Shown here in pieces: positions 14,401 through 20,949 of a stretch of 64,000 bases of DNA (position 1 is the stretch's first letter; the number at the start of each line of letters is the position of its first letter). A program made the position numbers and the translations under genes. This DNA is from a phage. Below the pieces are notes generated by a model. That model did no database searches. It saw only the letters and a list, made by a program, of their open reading frames with translations, and was not told the DNA's origin. The stretch is from NCBI GenBank assembly GCA_017686895.1, contig GCA_017686895.1_4521.1; one strand, written 5' to 3'.

Positions 14401-15036
14401 ATGAAAACTACACCAATCACTATCGCTATTGACGCAATCGTAAAACAAGCTTCTTCTTTGGCTACTATGGCCAAAGTAATTAGTCAAAACCCTGCTCGTT
14501 ATAATGCTATTCTAGAAACTCTTCGACGCCCTGGACTGAGTAATTATGAAAGCCGAGTAATTATTACAGGTGTTGGTAAGAACGCTAATATCGCAACTAA
14601 AGCTTCCGAGACTTTTGCTTCACTAGGTATTCCTAGCATGTATTTGAACACCGGGCATTATTCTCATGGCGACGCAGGGTTTATTGCACCTAATGATGTA
14701 TTAGTTCACATCAGTCGTTCTGGTAAGACTGAAGAAATGATAGGTGTTGCTAAACATCTTCGTATGATTCGTCCTCAGGTTAAACAGATTCTGTTACATT
14801 GTAACCCTGACATTCCGCAAGAATACGAAGCTCTTTTTGATTATACGTTCTGTACAGGCATCGCGGTAGAGGTTGATGAGAATTCTCTGGCTCCGACCAT
14901 GTCCACTACATTGTTGTTAGCGCTTATCGATACGTTTGCTATCAACCTTTCGTCTGAACGTGGATTTACCTCTAATGACTTCCTTAAGTTCCACCCTGGT
15001 GGTGCACTAGGTGCCATGTTACGAGGCGAACAATGA
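14401..15036 (+). CDS. SIS-domain sugar-phosphate isomerase, arabinose-5-phosphate isomerase (KdsD/GutQ)-like
   Basis: Motifs ETFASLGIP, HGDAGF, ISRSGKT resemble KdsD SIS domain; no CBS domains. Confidence 0.7.
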   Translation: MKTTPITIAIDAIVKQASSLATMAKVISQNPARYNAILETLRRPGLSNYESRVIITGVGKNANIATKASETFASLGIPSMYLNTGHYSHGDAGFIAPNDVLVHISRSGKTEEMIGVAKHLRMIRPQVKQILLHCNPDIPQEYEALFDYTFCTGIAVEVDENSLAPTMSTTLLLALIDTFAINLSSERGFTSNDFLKFHPGGALGAMLRGEQ

Positions 15037-15217: not shown

Positions 15218-16903
15218 ATGAAAAAAGCTGTTATTCTTGGTGCTGGACTGGCAACTCGTTTGTATCCAATAACGCACCATATTCCTAAGGTGCTTGTTAA
15301 CTATAAACAAGACACTATTCTGAGCAATTTGTATACAATTTATTCTGACCTTGGTGCAGATGAAATTATTGTAGTAGTTCATTCAAAATTTGTTGAAACT
15401 GTTCGAGCTTATTGTGAGCAAGAAGGGTTCAATGTGACTATTCGTACAGTTGATGAAGCGTATGGTTCTGCTTATGCTCTTGCTAAATTATACAAAGATT
15501 TAGATGGCCATAACGTAATTGTTAACTGGTGTGATATTATTCCTGATTTTGGTTCATGGTCTTGGAATGTTAACGCAATCTATGTTAAGGGTGATGAATG
15601 TCGATATAATTTCGATGGTGAAAATATCACTAACGTAGGTTCAACAGGCGGTAATGTTGTAGGAATTTATCAGTTCAAAGACTGGGAATTCTATATGGGT
15701 TCTACTGATGAGGAAATTCATGAATACTGCAAAGGGCGTGATTTCGTAGAATTCCTTTACGGCAGTGCATTCAATAAATCAGAGCTTATGAATCTAATTG
15801 ATTTAGGTGATATGCCTAAACTTGAAAAAGCTCATGAAGTTCGTGAACTTAATCGTAGTTTTAATGCAGTTGAAATTGGTGAAGAAACTGTAACTAAATT
15901 CGCATTAACCGAACAGGGACGAGCTCTTCAGAAAGATGAGATTTCGTGGTATCTTAAAGTGAAATCAGATTCAGTTCCTCAGTTAGTTTCTGTTAATGAA
16001 AATAACTTTGAAATGGAACGCATTAAAGGTAAGCCAGCATTTGAATATATTAAATCCAAATCAAGTCTTGCTCGTCCACAAATTGTTGATGCAATTTTAG
16101 ATGCACTGAAATTCAGCACAGACACTTATTTTGTAAGTCCTGAAACTGTTCGTCGTGATTTCACTAAAGAATTCTATACGAAAGTTATTGATCGTTGTGA
16201 AAGCATTCAACCATTGATTGATTCATTTGGTAAAATCACACATGTGAACTACACTAAGATTGGACGTCTGAAGCCAATGCTGAAACAAGCTTTAGAACAC
16301 CTTATTCGTTATCATAACCGTTCTCAGGGACAGTACTCTGTTATTCATGGTGACCCGAACTTCAGTAATACTATGATTACTGATAACGGCGAAGTCAAGT
16401 TTATCGACCCTCGTGGATATTTTGGCGAAACCAAGATTTACGGGCCAAAATTGTACGATGAAGCTAAAGTGCTTTATGCTGTTTCAGGTTATGATGAATT
16501 CAATGCTAATCCGACCTGGGGACAGTTTACTATTGATGAAACAACTTGTAATGTGACTATTAACATCAATCCATTAATTTACAAATATGGAAAGATGAGT
16601 TCGTTTAACGAGTATCATCATTTGGCGGTGGCAATTATCTGGATTGCATTAGGTGGTTATTTCAAGAATAATCCACTTAAAGCGGTAGCCGCATATTATA
16701 AAGGTATGGAACTTCTGACTAAGCAATTACGCAACATGGGCCGTGTACTTCAAGACGGCTCTATTAGTTATGACGTAGCAGAACCTGTAACGGCTACTCT
16801 GATTACAAAAAATCCTGGTAAATGGGTACTAACTGATAAAGAAACTGGTGTTTCCTATCGTCCAATCGGTGGCGATATCACTCATCAATGGGAACGAATC
16901 TAA
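15218..16903 (+). CDS. bifunctional sugar-1-phosphate nucleotidyltransferase / anomeric sugar kinase-like protein
   Basis: N-term AVILGAGLATRL...PK nucleotidyltransferase signature; C-term HGDPNFSN...IDPRG resembles APH/choline-kinase catalytic loop. Confidence 0.65.
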   Translation: MKKAVILGAGLATRLYPITHHIPKVLVNYKQDTILSNLYTIYSDLGADEIIVVVHSKFVETVRAYCEQEGFNVTIRTVDEAYGSAYALAKLYKDLDGHNVIVNWCDIIPDFGSWSWNVNAIYVKGDECRYNFDGENITNVGSTGGNVVGIYQFKDWEFYMGSTDEEIHEYCKGRDFVEFLYGSAFNKSELMNLIDLGDMPKLEKAHEVRELNRSFNAVEIGEETVTKFALTEQGRALQKDEISWYLKVKSDSVPQLVSVNENNFEMERIKGKPAFEYIKSKSSLARPQIVDAILDALKFSTDTYFVSPETVRRDFTKEFYTKVIDRCESIQPLIDSFGKITHVNYTKIGRLKPMLKQALEHLIRYHNRSQGQYSVIHGDPNFSNTMITDNGEVKFIDPRGYFGETKIYGPKLYDEAKVLYAVSGYDEFNANPTWGQFTIDETTCNVTININPLIYKYGKMSSFNEYHHLAVAIIWIALGGYFKNNPLKAVAAYYKGMELLTKQLRNMGRVLQDGSISYDVAEPVTATLITKNPGKWVLTDKETGVSYRPIGGDITHQWERI

Positions 16904-17289
16904 TGCACCGTGTAGAAAACATGCTTAATCTTTGTTTTGATGTCGATGATTGTATAACAGAGTGGAATAACAATCGTGATTACGTGAACTTCAAACCAGA
17001 CGTCGAAATGGTGTCTGCCATTAATGCCCTGTATGATGCAGGGCATACCATAACGCTTTACACTGCTCGTGGTATGAAGTCAGTAGGTCCTGGTCGTATA
17101 GCAATTGACATTCTCCCAAGTCTGATTCAGAACTTGGCAAACATTGGCTTGAAGTACCATAATTTGCTAACACATAAACCAGTATATGATTGGATTATCG
17201 ACGACAAAGCTATGCGTCCTGACGAATTCAAAGCTCTTATGAATAAAGGCGAATTCGAAACATTTAAATCATATAAACCGAATCTATAA
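16903..17289 (+). CDS. HAD-superfamily phosphatase-like protein
   Basis: FDVDDCIT (DxD motif I), LYTARG, WIIDDK; start taken at ATG overlapping upstream stop. Confidence 0.45.
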   Translation: MHRVENMLNLCFDVDDCITEWNNNRDYVNFKPDVEMVSAINALYDAGHTITLYTARGMKSVGPGRIAIDILPSLIQNLANIGLKYHNLLTHKPVYDWIIDDKAMRPDEFKALMNKGEFETFKSYKPNL

Positions 17290-17335: not shown

Positions 17336-18505
17336 ATGCAAAAAATGAATACTTTTAAAATCGGAACGAATTTTGATTTAGCTCTTCTTGATAAAATCGT
17401 AGAGCTCAATAAAACCTATCCTAATAGCTTGATAAACGAAGTATATGGCTCTACAAGAGAAATGGCTTTTGTAGCAGCCAGACCTGATTTTAGGCTTCCT
17501 GACGTTGACAAAAAGATGTTAGAAGATTACGTTAAACGTTGTAACGAATTAGGTATTTGCTTTAACTATACACTCAACACGATAAATCCTGGTTCAAAAA
17601 GAGAACTAGTTGAGTGGAAGAAGAAAGCTATTCAGGATTATGTTCAGTATCTTTGGTCAATAGGCGTATGGCGTATTACTATCGCTAACCCTGTTGTTAT
17701 GGAAATTGTTCGTGAAGTCAATAAAGATATTGAGATTGAAGTTTCAACAATTCTACATGTCGATGCGGTAACTCAAATCAAATACTTACATGACCAATAT
17801 AACATCAAAAAGGTCTGTTGCGGAATTCATAAGAACCGTTCAGTTTCTTTCCTGAAGCGTGCAGCAGAGTTTTGCAATAAGAACAATATAATATTTGAAG
17901 TTCTTGTAAATGAGTTCTGTTCTAATGCTGGTAAAGGGTATACAACACATTGTAGTTATCGTGACTCTTGCTATATTTTCCATAGTACTGATGTTACAGC
18001 TGATGATGCTAAATCCTTAAATGGATATCCAATGCAACACTGCATTAAAGCTCGTGATACAGACCCATTTAACTGGTTGAGAACTCGTTTTGTTCGTCCT
18101 CAAGATTTGAAACTTTATAATGATATTGGTATCACTCAATTCAAAGTTTCAGGACGTACAGGTAGCACAGACTACATTTTGAAAGTTCTTGAAGCATACG
18201 CTTCTGAAAAGTTTGAAGGTAATTTGTTAGAACTGTGGAAGCCTTTAGAGACTATTTTCACTCTTGAAAATGAGACTGAGTTTTCACATACAGTAAATAT
18301 TGAAACCTCTTTGTTAGATGGCTTTTTAGAAAAAAGGTGGTTCAGACATCCAGATTTTGATTGTGCTAATGAAATCTGTGGGTCAACGTGTACATATTGT
18401 GAAAGGTATTATAAACGTCAATTATCTAAAAACGGGTTAGCAGAAAACTCCATATCTATTATTGATATAACTAACTCTGATGACGCTTTGAGGTACCCGG
18501 AATGA
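17336..18505 (+). CDS. peptidase-U32-family-like Fe-S protein
   Basis: N-terminal layout and Cys-rich EFCSNAGKGYTTHCSYRDSC segment resemble U32 family; C-terminal CxxxCxxC cluster. Confidence 0.5.
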   Translation: MQKMNTFKIGTNFDLALLDKIVELNKTYPNSLINEVYGSTREMAFVAARPDFRLPDVDKKMLEDYVKRCNELGICFNYTLNTINPGSKRELVEWKKKAIQDYVQYLWSIGVWRITIANPVVMEIVREVNKDIEIEVSTILHVDAVTQIKYLHDQYNIKKVCCGIHKNRSVSFLKRAAEFCNKNNIIFEVLVNEFCSNAGKGYTTHCSYRDSCYIFHSTDVTADDAKSLNGYPMQHCIKARDTDPFNWLRTRFVRPQDLKLYNDIGITQFKVSGRTGSTDYILKVLEAYASEKFEGNLLELWKPLETIFTLENETEFSHTVNIETSLLDGFLEKRWFRHPDFDCANEICGSTCTYCERYYKRQLSKNGLAENSISIIDITNSDDALRYPE

Positions 18506-18741
18506 TTTCTAGAAAAAGTTTTAATTATAAACTTAACGAAGAGATTTTGACTATGAAACTGAACACTAACGAACAAATTCTTAAAAAGGCCCTTATGGGC
18601 CTGTTTGAAACCAAAGCGGCTAAAGTGATTAAAGAACCTGTTCAATTGGAATACTACACTGATGCATTCCTTCATAGTGTTCTTGGAAGTATAGATTCTG
18701 AAGCTTTACGTTATATCAACATTGTCAAGAAATTCAAATAA
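18502..18741 (+). CDS. hypothetical protein
   Basis: 79-aa ORF, ATGA overlap. Confidence 0.3.
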   Translation: MISRKSFNYKLNEEILTMKLNTNEQILKKALMGLFETKAAKVIKEPVQLEYYTDAFLHSVLGSIDSEALRYINIVKKFK

Positions 18742-18783: not shown

Positions 18784-19500
18784 ATGGGAAAACATAACAC
18801 AATGAAATATATCAAAGCCGCAGATTTTCAAACCGCATTTAAAGCAGTCAATCGTGAAATTTTAGAAAACCCCGAATTCGTAACTGATTCTCGTATTGGA
18901 CGTTGTAATGAAATTGGGTCTATGACAGTAGTTGTTGACACTCCATCATCATTCAAAATGACCGACCCACGTATTAACCGCATCTCTTATGAATATGCCG
19001 AAGACTTCTGGAAGTTTATGATTTCTGGTGGTACCAACGCAGAAGAAGCGTTTAAGGCATATCCTAATGTCGCTAAATTTATTTCTAAACCAAAATCAGA
19101 TGTTTTGCCGGCGAACTTCAACACTTTCTATGGTCCTCGCATTGCGGCCCAATTACCAACTCTTCTAAAAGAACTTAAAGAAAAACCTAACTCTCGAAGA
19201 GTTGTGTTCCAAATTCTAGAAAGTTCTGATCAGGCTTTGCTTGATTCGGACGAAACACTTGAATATCCATGTACTGACTCAGTAACTTATTATATTCGTG
19301 ATGGTAAGCTTTATACCCACTGTCATATGCGTTCTCAGAACTGTGCTGTTGTTATGCAGTTGGATTTTTATCTCCAAGGAAAATTACTTCATTATATCGC
19401 TAACGAATGCGGTGTAGAAGTTGGTGATTATACTCATACCATGGTAAGTGCCCATGTGTTTGAACGTGATTTTGATTATGTTAAAGGATTCCTTGACTAA
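18784..19500 (+). CDS. thymidylate-synthase-family pyrimidine hydroxymethylase (gene 42-like dCMP hydroxymethylase)
   Basis: PCTDSV and HCHMRSQN resemble TS-family catalytic Cys and (Q/M)RS motifs; position and dCTPase at 29023 support hmC synthesis; divergent from T4 gp42. Confidence 0.65.
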   Translation: MGKHNTMKYIKAADFQTAFKAVNREILENPEFVTDSRIGRCNEIGSMTVVVDTPSSFKMTDPRINRISYEYAEDFWKFMISGGTNAEEAFKAYPNVAKFISKPKSDVLPANFNTFYGPRIAAQLPTLLKELKEKPNSRRVVFQILESSDQALLDSDETLEYPCTDSVTYYIRDGKLYTHCHMRSQNCAVVMQLDFYLQGKLLHYIANECGVEVGDYTHTMVSAHVFERDFDYVKGFLD

Positions 19501-20400: not shown

Positions 20401-20949
20401 ATGGCTAAAATTATTTTAGTAGATGGCCCGGATAATGCTGGTAAAACAACTTTCATTAATGACATAATGGAAATTAGTGAAAGATATGTAAAGATTGATT
20501 TCCCTAAACGAACAGTTGATGGACGTTTCGATGTTAAGTCTCGAAATGAAGTTGGCTGTTTCGAAACTATGTTGAATTATTTAGACCCTACTAAGATTTA
20601 TCTATTAGACCGTGGATATATTAGTAACTGGGTTTATGGACGTATTCGACAAGATGCGGACTCGGTTCTTGACGTTTATGAACAGGATTATGTTCGTCTT
20701 TGCCAAAACCATGATGTGTTCACAATTATTTTAACACGTAACGAAATGACTGAAAGTTTTGAAGACGACCTTATTACTTTGTCTTCATTCGGTTTTAATA
20801 CAGTAATTTCACATTTTGAAGAGTTTGCAATTCATAACGAAATCCAAACGTATCAATTACTTAATCATGATGGTGCTAACAAAGTTATAGGATTTAATGC
20901 AAGCGAACGTAATAATTTGATTACAGAAATCATCAAATGGGCTCGTTAA
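20401..20949 (+). CDS. P-loop nucleoside/nucleotide kinase-like protein
   Basis: Walker A GPDNAGKTT and LDRGY motif resemble thymidylate/dNMP kinase fold. Confidence 0.5.
   Translation: MAKIILVDGPDNAGKTTFINDIMEISERYVKIDFPKRTVDGRFDVKSRNEVGCFETMLNYLDPTKIYLLDRGYISNWVYGRIRQDADSVLDVYEQDYVRLCQNHDVFTIILTRNEMTESFEDDLITLSSFGFNTVISHFEEFAIHNEIQTYQLLNHDGANKVIGFNASERNNLITEIIKWAR

Follow-up and report, generated by a model that had tools for sequence, protein, structure and literature searches.

What does a protein of the peptidase U32 family do in a phage island devoted to the modification of DNA? The stretch analysed here, called the window, comprises 64,000 nucleotides of phage DNA (assembly GCA_017686895.1, contig GCA_017686895.1_4521.1), and its modification island contains a U32-family gene for 389 amino acids (17336-18505), placed between the genes for a HAD phosphatase and a thymidylate synthase (TS) homolog, with only a 79-residue open reading frame (ORF) before the latter. 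This is a genuine and conserved gene that catalogues already list, and no supported function for it was found in the accessible literature. Its relatives, its neighbours and its taxonomic distribution suggest that the encoded protein is very likely a prephenate-linked hydroxylase of some substrate, and probably a prephenate-dependent, O2-independent dCMP C5-hydroxylase.

The gene product is a U32-family protein, as the initial annotation had proposed. The Pfam model PF01136 matches residues 97-289 with 42.2 bits (cut-off 22.4, E=7.4e-11), the AlphaFold2 (AF2) model has a predicted local distance difference test (pLDDT) score of 94, and the top match of this model in a fold search is 5D88, the TIM-barrel U32 protein Mk0906. 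Together with the profile comparison presented below, this places the protein in the U32 fold and not in an unrelated one. A sequence search of the PDB with the protein gave 0 matches, and the RB69 ortholog, ORF050c, is 99.2% identical to it. The true start of the gene is probably the ATG at 17345 and not the annotated ATG at 17336, because homologs start there with MNTFK and a GAG lies 9-11 nt upstream. A radical SAM enzyme, as suggested by a CxxxCxxC motif, was rejected, since PF04055 does not match, the motif is C-terminal and outside the barrel, and there is a fourth conserved cysteine, C343.

In databases the gene is labelled 'peptidase' (PHROGs, RefSeq), 'hypothetical' (the HY126 GenBank record) or 'putative enzyme involved in UDP-arabinose biosynthesis' (the BASEL annotation, GenBank MZ501056). 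Both the family name, peptidase U32, and the first of these labels speak for a collagenase-type peptidase. However, in RlhA, TrhP and UbiU/V the name stems from old collagenase reports, while the genetics indicate hydroxylation, and invariant cysteine clusters in a context of nucleotide metabolism do not fit a protease, which makes a peptidase hardly credible.

With regard to the place of the protein among the U32 hydroxylases, a 121-sequence diverse family profile was compared with the E. coli U32 paralogs by hhalign. The best matches were RlhA (probability 97.6%, E=2.9e-12) and TrhP (97.5%, E=5.1e-12, catalytic domain only), followed by UbiU (92.5%, E=4.7e-7) and UbiV (5.5%, E=6.9e-3), which upholds the kinship with RlhA, TrhP and UbiU that had been claimed from the letters of the window. 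The NCBIfam model for UbiU, NF047963, remains far below threshold on the ORF (18.4 bits, cut-off 440). PF01136 is the sole Pfam match: neither DUF3656, the RlhA accessory domain whose combination with U32 is unique to RlhA (PMC5727448), nor Peptidase_U32_C (PF16325), the accessory domain of TrhP, was found in the ORF, the latter at E<=0.1. Because both domains are absent, the phage protein is, judged by profile and domain content, a separate subfamily that is nearest to the two RNA pyrimidine-C5 hydroxylases RlhA and TrhP, and not an RlhA ortholog. A HMMER scan of 1.84 billion representatives returned 111 clusters (50% identity) at E<=1e-30. As for the characterised members, genetic work has shown that RlhA and TrhP depend on prephenate, which isotope labelling has identified as the oxygen donor for UbiU/V.

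Nine cysteines (C161, C195, C206, C212, C236, C343, C348, C352 and C355) are invariant among 107 family members of 46-87% identity. The Cys-rich centre and the C-terminal CxxxCxxC that had been noticed at first are both genuine, with four invariant cysteines each, the second being in fact a Cx4Cx3Cx2C cluster (Table 1). In a MAFFT alignment with E. coli UbiU, UbiV, TrhP and RlhA, C195 and C212 align with the CX6C pair of RlhA (C169, C176) and UbiU, and the conserved E188 with RlhA E161. Residues E161, C169 and C176 are essential in RlhA (PMC5727448), and C169, C176, C193 and C232 are cluster ligands or essential in UbiU (10.1101/587956). In the phage clade, 10 inserted residues lie between the equivalents of the CX6C pair, so that C195 and C212 are now 16 residues apart, and this insertion carries the invariant C206; C236 is positioned close to UbiU C232 in the alignment and is preceded by a GYP motif that UbiU also has, just before this fourth ligand. 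The number of central cysteines would suit a [4Fe-4S] site, albeit one of non-canonical spacing. The C-terminal four-cysteine motif is conserved throughout the phage clade and occurs in 105 of 121 sequences of the broader family; it is absent from UbiU, UbiV and TrhP, and MAFFT sets it against the C-terminal cysteine region of RlhA, whose cysteines are also essential (PMC5727448). The phage protein would bind one or two iron-sulphur (Fe-S) clusters.

The strongest single argument for prephenate-dependent hydroxylation by the phage U32 proteins is provided by the genes that accompany them. When the ORFs that surround U32 homologs were clustered for 54 loci, links appeared between small ORFs immediately 3' of U32 in T4-like phages, a gene of the 3-deoxy-D-arabinoheptulosonate 7-phosphate (DAHP) synthase family, and proteins of 340-351 amino acids in uncultured phages. 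In Pfam, the small ORFs are type II chorismate mutases (CM; AroQ, with CM_2 at 38-55 bits, cut-off 27), and the 340-351-residue proteins are fusions of DAHP synthase and CM (88.7 and 71.8 bits). Prephenate is the product of chorismate mutase, and DAHP synthase catalyses the step that commits carbon to the route towards it. The order U32-(79-residue ORF)-CM-TS homolog-glycosyltransferase (GT)-kinase is found in 13 of 15 T4-like IMG/VR loci. Furthermore, tblastn detected CM in 51 cultured-phage records, where U32 and the TS homolog flank it wherever the annotation resolves the neighbours; the hosts include Klebsiella, Serratia (phages LC53 and 92A1 among them), Yersinia, Enterobacter, Edwardsiella, Erwinia, Pectobacterium, Providencia, Morganella and Shewanella. 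In uncultured phages that are not T4-like, U32 is followed by CM, by the DAHP synthase-CM fusion or by DAHP synthase alone, and one of these genes directly adjoins U32 in 11 of 39 loci and additionally in L094. Of the clusters without U32, those of a Dhakavirus and of an Acinetobacter phage were examined, and neither contains CM. In an alignment with the CM domains of E. coli PheA and TyrA, R11, R28, K39, E52 and S84 are kept, as is Q88 nearly always. The phage CMs are entered as unknown or hypothetical in PHROGs (phrog_10027) and in most GenBank records, and the DAHP synthase(-CM) genes of the uncultured phages are viral shikimate-pathway genes.

The uncultured phages also show that the U32 gene can stand without the TS homolog. 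U32 homologs of 44-58% identity occur on non-T4-like uncultured viral contigs of 40-466 kb, and 39 such loci were surveyed with iterated hidden Markov models (HMMs) to 10 kb on either side or to the contig end. An AraT1-like GT lies near U32 in 26 of them, the thymidylate-kinase-like kinase in 28, an AfhE-like gene in 16 and a SIS isomerase in 9. The TS-family HMM, which was built from seven sequences and recovers 15/15 of the T4-like TS homologs, found a canonical ThyA in L029 and a weak, truncated match in L057, leaving 37 of the 39 loci without a TS-family gene. When the loci were anchored on the GT instead, by means of a narrow GT alignment because the broad one was too diverse, U32 was present in 16 of 17 and the TS-like hydroxylase in none, with one locus ending at a contig edge. 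This anchoring yielded a new 199-kb contig with the order GT-isomerase-AfhE-(DAHP synthase-CM)-U32. The near-complete viral contig UViG_3300045988_074298 (43.79/43.97 kb reassembled) carries U32 and a GT, and no TS-family gene was found on it with the HMMER filters off.

Two cassettes recur in these loci, one of them consisting of MazG/dUTPase-kinase-GT-U32-Pol III alpha (L012 type) and the other of kinase-GT-U32-TAGT-like GT-dUTPase/DCD, with a UDP-galactopyranose mutase further on (L011:7777-16179, L035). The latter module resembles the sugar gene set of the Rhizobium phage RL38J1, whose 5-hydroxycytosine (5hoC) is glycosylated, with U32 replacing the TS homolog. At least 10 non-T4 loci have U32, a GT and a kinase without arabinose-supply genes, some of them with other sugar genes (GLF, TAGT-like GT). 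In their general plan the uncultured cassettes mirror each step of the T4 set gp56-gp42-gp1-gp43-glucosyltransferase, with U32 in the slot of gp42, and they differ from the T4 paradigm in that the base-modifying enzyme would be a presumed Fe-S U32 protein and not a folate-dependent TS homolog.

In the island of the window, the TS homolog had been read as a TS-family hydroxymethylase, with the hydroxymethylcytosine (hmC) context that this implies. This reading did not hold, as the TS homolog is an O2-dependent dCMP 5-hydroxylase and RB69-type DNA contains arabinosyl-5-hydroxycytosine (PMC13326640). Lee et al. (NAR 2026, PMC13326640) have described mono- and di-arabosylated 5hoC, and not arabinosyl-hmC, in RB69 DNA, and have used 18O2 labelling to demonstrate that the RB69 TS homolog yields 5-hydroxy-dCMP from O2 with bound flavin, an activity for whose in vitro confirmation He et al. 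2026 is cited there. The TS homolog and the kinase alone suffice for 5-hydroxydeoxycytidine (5hodC) in E. coli, and the sugar genes lead to UDP-arabinofuranose, which was reconstituted with AfhE and AfhF alone (as summarised in PMC13326640). Since the neighbour is an O2-dependent hydroxylase, the reading of U32 as an anaerobic backup becomes sharper. In the same paper the U32 gene (RB69p050) is found in Table 1 only, as a 'sugar or heterocycle reductase', and is not discussed; the words U32, peptidase, prephenate and Fe-S are absent from it, and its discussion mentions two RNA pyrimidine-hydroxylation pathways without a link to the U32 gene.

The term 'reductase', the vicinity of a flavoenzyme gene and the two conserved cysteine clusters, which would suit electron transfer, are compatible with the protein being a flavin reductase that gives reduced flavin mononucleotide (FMN) to the TS-like hydroxylase. 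Notwithstanding, 5hodC is formed in E. coli from the TS homolog and kinase without it, phages of Acinetobacter and Rhizobium and the Dhakavirus have the flavoenzyme and no U32, most of the non-T4 loci surveyed have U32 and no TS-family gene for it to serve, and the CM link would be left unexplained, all of which makes such an electron-transfer partner very unlikely.

An enzyme of the sugar pathway, acting on arabinose-5-P, UDP-arabinose or another activated sugar, would match both the 'sugar or heterocycle reductase' and the BASEL labels as well as the position of the gene inside a sugar and base island, and the AfhE-like and SIS isomerase genes found near U32 in part of the non-T4 loci also point in this direction. 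Conversely, AfhE and AfhF did not need a third enzyme to give UDP-arabinofuranose, some U32-bearing loci have no arabinose-supply genes, and the adjacency of CM and DAHP synthase would have no rationale. Moreover, DLP3, other Acinetobacter phages and the examined Dhakavirus cluster have the sugar-supply genes without U32, and DLP3 nevertheless makes arabinosyl-5hoC. A role in the sugar pathway therefore appears improbable, and an extra oxidative step on the sugar, which the initial annotation had listed among its options, is disfavoured as well, given that phages without U32 arrive at the same arabinosyl-5hoC.

The distribution among cultured phages fits a role tied to oxygen supply. The search for U32 matched 222 phage records, which without exception show >=80% identity and come from phages of Enterobacterales or Shewanella, among them Escherichia (137), Klebsiella (26), Shigella (14), Serratia (7), Proteus (7) and Yersinia (6), with Enterobacter, Providencia, Edwardsiella, Shewanella and a few other genera completing the list. 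The TS-type hydroxylase was found in 374 records, which include phages of Acinetobacter (57), Rhizobium (20) and Agrobacterium, genera that are not among the U32 matches. Acinetobacter and the rhizobia are aerobes, whereas the U32-positive hosts are facultative anaerobes. The cluster of the Acinetobacter phage Mokit (L007) has the order isomerase-AfhE-phosphatase-TS-GT-kinase-GT-GT, in which the phosphatase gene directly precedes the TS homolog, and DLP3, which has the same arrangement without U32, makes tri-arabinosyl-5hoC (PMC13326640). Since U32-less phages make the same product, U32 seems to be unneeded for any unique sugar or base step under oxic laboratory conditions, and a conditional or redundant role is therefore favoured over a dedicated one in the sugar pathway. 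The other option of the initial annotation, an anaerobic route to a modified nucleotide, is favoured by the fused or adjacent CM and DAHP synthase genes, the facultative-anaerobe hosts and the TS-free cassettes.

In the proposed reaction, the U32 enzyme would oxidise the pyrimidine ring of dCMP at C5 without O2, with prephenate giving the hydroxyl and phenylpyruvate and CO2 being released, as proposed for UbiU/V. The resulting 5-hydroxy-dCMP would join the route of the TS-homolog product, namely phosphorylation, incorporation by the phage polymerase and arabinosylation on DNA. The phage would in this manner possess an aerobic and an anaerobic hydroxylase, like the TrhO/TrhP or UbiIHF/UbiUV pairs of its host, and cytosine replacement could continue in the anoxic gut. 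A mononucleotide is the preferred substrate because the kinase and pyrophosphatase neighbours are constant and RNA-binding domains are absent.

The substrate is the part of this scheme on which a prephenate-dependent hydroxylase could differ from the one proposed, as cytosine in phage DNA, dCTP, dUMP, or phage or host tRNA or rRNA could take the place of dCMP. The sequence does not reveal the substrate, and RlhA and TrhP, the nearest relatives with a known activity, use polymer RNA. A dCMP deaminase gene stands directly beside U32, sometimes overlapping it, in several uncultured phages (L001:9447-10004, L002:8279-8704, L080:2750-3193); these neighbours belong to contigs of megaphage size (466 kb) and to a distant homolog of 35% identity, and could mean that dUMP, not dCMP, is the substrate there. 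Against these points, the RNA-binding or accessory domains of TrhP and RlhA are missing from a protein with PF01136 only, the constant neighbours (nucleotide kinase, dNTP pyrophosphatase and DNA glycosyltransferase) follow the logic of a pre-replicative mononucleotide pathway, and the abstract of PMC13326640 gives no modified base besides 5hoC derivatives in RB69 DNA. A prephenate-dependent hydroxylase of another substrate is, on this evidence, unlikely, and dCMP remains the probable one.

Several observations weigh against a prephenate-dependent dCMP hydroxylase. No CM was found anywhere in the 64-kb window, which is from a Mosigvirus and has an unrelated, translationally coupled 79-residue ORF in that slot, so Mosigviruses would have to depend on the host PheA and TyrA. 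The short CMs of T4-like phages have lost the equivalent of R51 (Arg51) and the H2-H3 loop. The third cysteine of the canonical motif (CX15C) is absent from the phage clade, and the spacing is non-canonical with respect to CX6CX15CX3/4C. Around 40 Escherichia-named records have the TS hydroxylase and no U32, which indicates that the gene is accessory and not obligatory for enteric phages; the cluster of the E. coli Dhakavirus UGJNEcP4 (L006 3878-8589), with the order AfhE-phosphatase-kinase-TS-GT and neither U32 nor the 79-residue ORF nor CM, is the main exception to the link with enteric hosts. Additionally, most of the non-T4 loci were seen to 10 kb on either side only, and in vitro reconstitution of a U32 hydroxylase has never been achieved.

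Among known systems, the closest parallel is RlhA (YdcP), the synthase of 5-hydroxycytidine at C2501 of E. coli 23S rRNA. The phage protein keeps the U32 domain and the equivalents of E161, C169 and C176, both proteins have an extra conserved cysteine cluster near the C-terminus, and RlhA is the best hhalign match; C5-hydroxylation of cytosine would be the common chemistry, and the need of RlhA for prephenate and Fe-S has its counterpart in the linkage of phage U32 genes to prephenate-making genes. The phage protein differs in being virus-encoded and shorter (389 against 653 amino acids), in lacking DUF3656, in its central cysteines (C-x10-C-x5-C-x23-C against CX6CX15CX3C) and in its presumed substrate, a deoxynucleotide as opposed to rRNA. 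TrhP and TrhO, which make ho5U34 in tRNA, offer a precedent for pairing a prephenate-dependent U32 protein with an unrelated O2-dependent enzyme for the same 5-hydroxypyrimidine, a pair described as useful to organisms of both oxic and anoxic habitats, and the phage likewise pairs U32 with an O2- and flavin-dependent TS homolog. In the phage, however, there is no Peptidase_U32_C domain, the part that depends on O2 falls to a flavoenzyme of the TS fold and not to a rhodanese, and the target would be a DNA precursor.

UbiU-UbiV (with UbiT) are U32 Fe-S proteins that act on a small molecule with prephenate as the oxygen donor, and the distal fourth cysteine of UbiU follows a GYP-like motif, as in the phage protein. 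The latter is a single chain with two cysteine clusters and has no heterodimer partner or SCP2 protein, as neither a second U32 gene nor an SCP2 gene was found within the modification island. With the TS-type 5-hydroxy-dCMP (5hodCMP) synthases of RB69 (gp48), DLP3 (gp80) and HY126, the phage U32 protein would share the product, the gene cluster and all later steps, those of kinase, polymerase and arabinosyltransferase; those synthases have an unrelated thymidylate synthase fold with FMN and a strict need for O2. The U32 ORF has no Pfam match to Thymidylat_synt, and we propose that its relation to these enzymes is one of functional analogy and not of homology.

The observations added here to the catalogued gene are the linkage to CM and DAHP synthase, the restriction to facultative-anaerobe hosts, the TS-free kinase-GT-U32 cassettes and a profile nearest to RlhA and TrhP. 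In the literature covered, which did not extend to He et al. 2026 and Mahler et al. 2025, no paper joins U32, bacteriophage and hydroxycytosine, and no relevant one brings chorismate mutase together with the arabinosylation of cytosine in phages; the U32 gene is mentioned neither in the Thanatos paper nor in the 2018 paper on RB69, and a phage Tn-seq preprint contains no essentiality data for Bas46. We see about even chances for a wider claim, namely that this large U32 subfamily, which is viral for the most part, constitutes the first known group of prephenate-dependent, O2-independent hydroxylases acting on DNA precursors, for which phages bring their own prephenate supply (CM, DAHP synthase), and that it serves as the sole source of 5-hydroxypyrimidine for DNA glycosylation in many uncultured phages, jumbo phages included, and as the anaerobic twin of the flavin- and O2-dependent TS-type hydroxylase in enteric T4-like phages.

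If this were the case, it would become clear how phages in which arabinosyl-5-hydroxycytosine takes the place of all cytosine can multiply in a gut devoid of oxygen, given that O2 is indispensable to the one hydroxylase of the pathway characterised so far. Prephenate-dependent hydroxylation, which is known from RNA and quinones, would then also operate on DNA precursors and in viruses, and a purpose would emerge for the phage CM and DAHP synthase genes, which have 'unknown function' in PHROGs. The U32 hydroxylases have resisted reconstitution in vitro partly because their substrates are ribosome precursors, tRNAs and very hydrophobic polyprenyl quinones, and a single-chain enzyme of 389 residues acting on commercially available dCMP would make the U32 mechanism directly testable with regard to the oxidant and the roles of the clusters. 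These questions are of relevance to phage therapy and to phage engineering under gut-like conditions.

Table 1. Positions of the U32 gene, its cysteine motifs and neighbouring genes in the window, and of prephenate-related genes beside U32 in other loci (locus:positions).
Feature	Position	Strand	Remarks
SIS arabinose-5-P isomerase	14401-15036	+	UDP-arabinose supply; Pfam, NCBIfam
AfhE-like nucleotidyltransferase/kinase, 561 aa	15218-16903	+	UDP-arabinose supply; Pfam, NCBIfam
AfhF-like HAD phosphatase	16888-17289	+	UDP-arabinose supply; Pfam, NCBIfam
U32-family ORF, 389 aa	17336-18505	+	Intact ORF; RB69 ORF050c ortholog; PF01136 match
Central Cys motif C195-x10-C206-x5-C212-x23-C236	17918-18043	+	Presumed [4Fe-4S] site; all four invariant
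C-terminal cluster C343-x4-C348-x3-C352-x2-C355	18362-18400	+	Presumed second metal or Fe-S site
79-aa ORF (RB69 ORF049c, phrog_8601)	18502-18741	+	ATG overlaps U32 stop (ATGA)
TS homolog, O2/flavin-dependent 5-hydroxy-dCMP synthase	18784-19500	+	RB69 gp48 ortholog, 98.7% identity; Pfam Thymidylat_synt, tblastn
DNA arabinosyltransferase 1, 299 aa	19500-20399	+	RB69 gp46:47 ortholog
Thymidylate-kinase-like nucleotide kinase	20401-20949	+	RB69 gp45 ortholog; phrog_761
Phage AroQ CMs, 79-132 aa	L016:11170-11406, L015:11325-11564, L020:11167-11508, L025:11387-11782		Between U32 and TS homolog
DAHP synthase-CM fusions or DAHP synthase alone beside U32	L039:8411-9430, L041:7302-8354, L094:13907-14968, L005:11145-11891, L027:9384-10127		Some jumbo phages

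The 79-residue ORF that follows U32 in the window was considered as a diverged CM and rejected, as it has no Pfam match and hhalign against the CM family gives 0.1%; it contains no cysteine and occurs in 5 of the 15 T4-like loci, in some of them between U32 and CM. The AfhE-like and arabinosyltransferase genes are intact in the window and are each split into two ORFs in the RB69 reference, splits that Lee et al. have put down to sequencing errors (PMC13326640). A scan for promoters and terminators gave 21 sites against 25.8 expected from shuffles, which is not above chance. The GC skew changes sign at about 52 kb of the window, being positive before and negative from 52 to 60 kb, which fits a switch in the direction of transcription between gene blocks.

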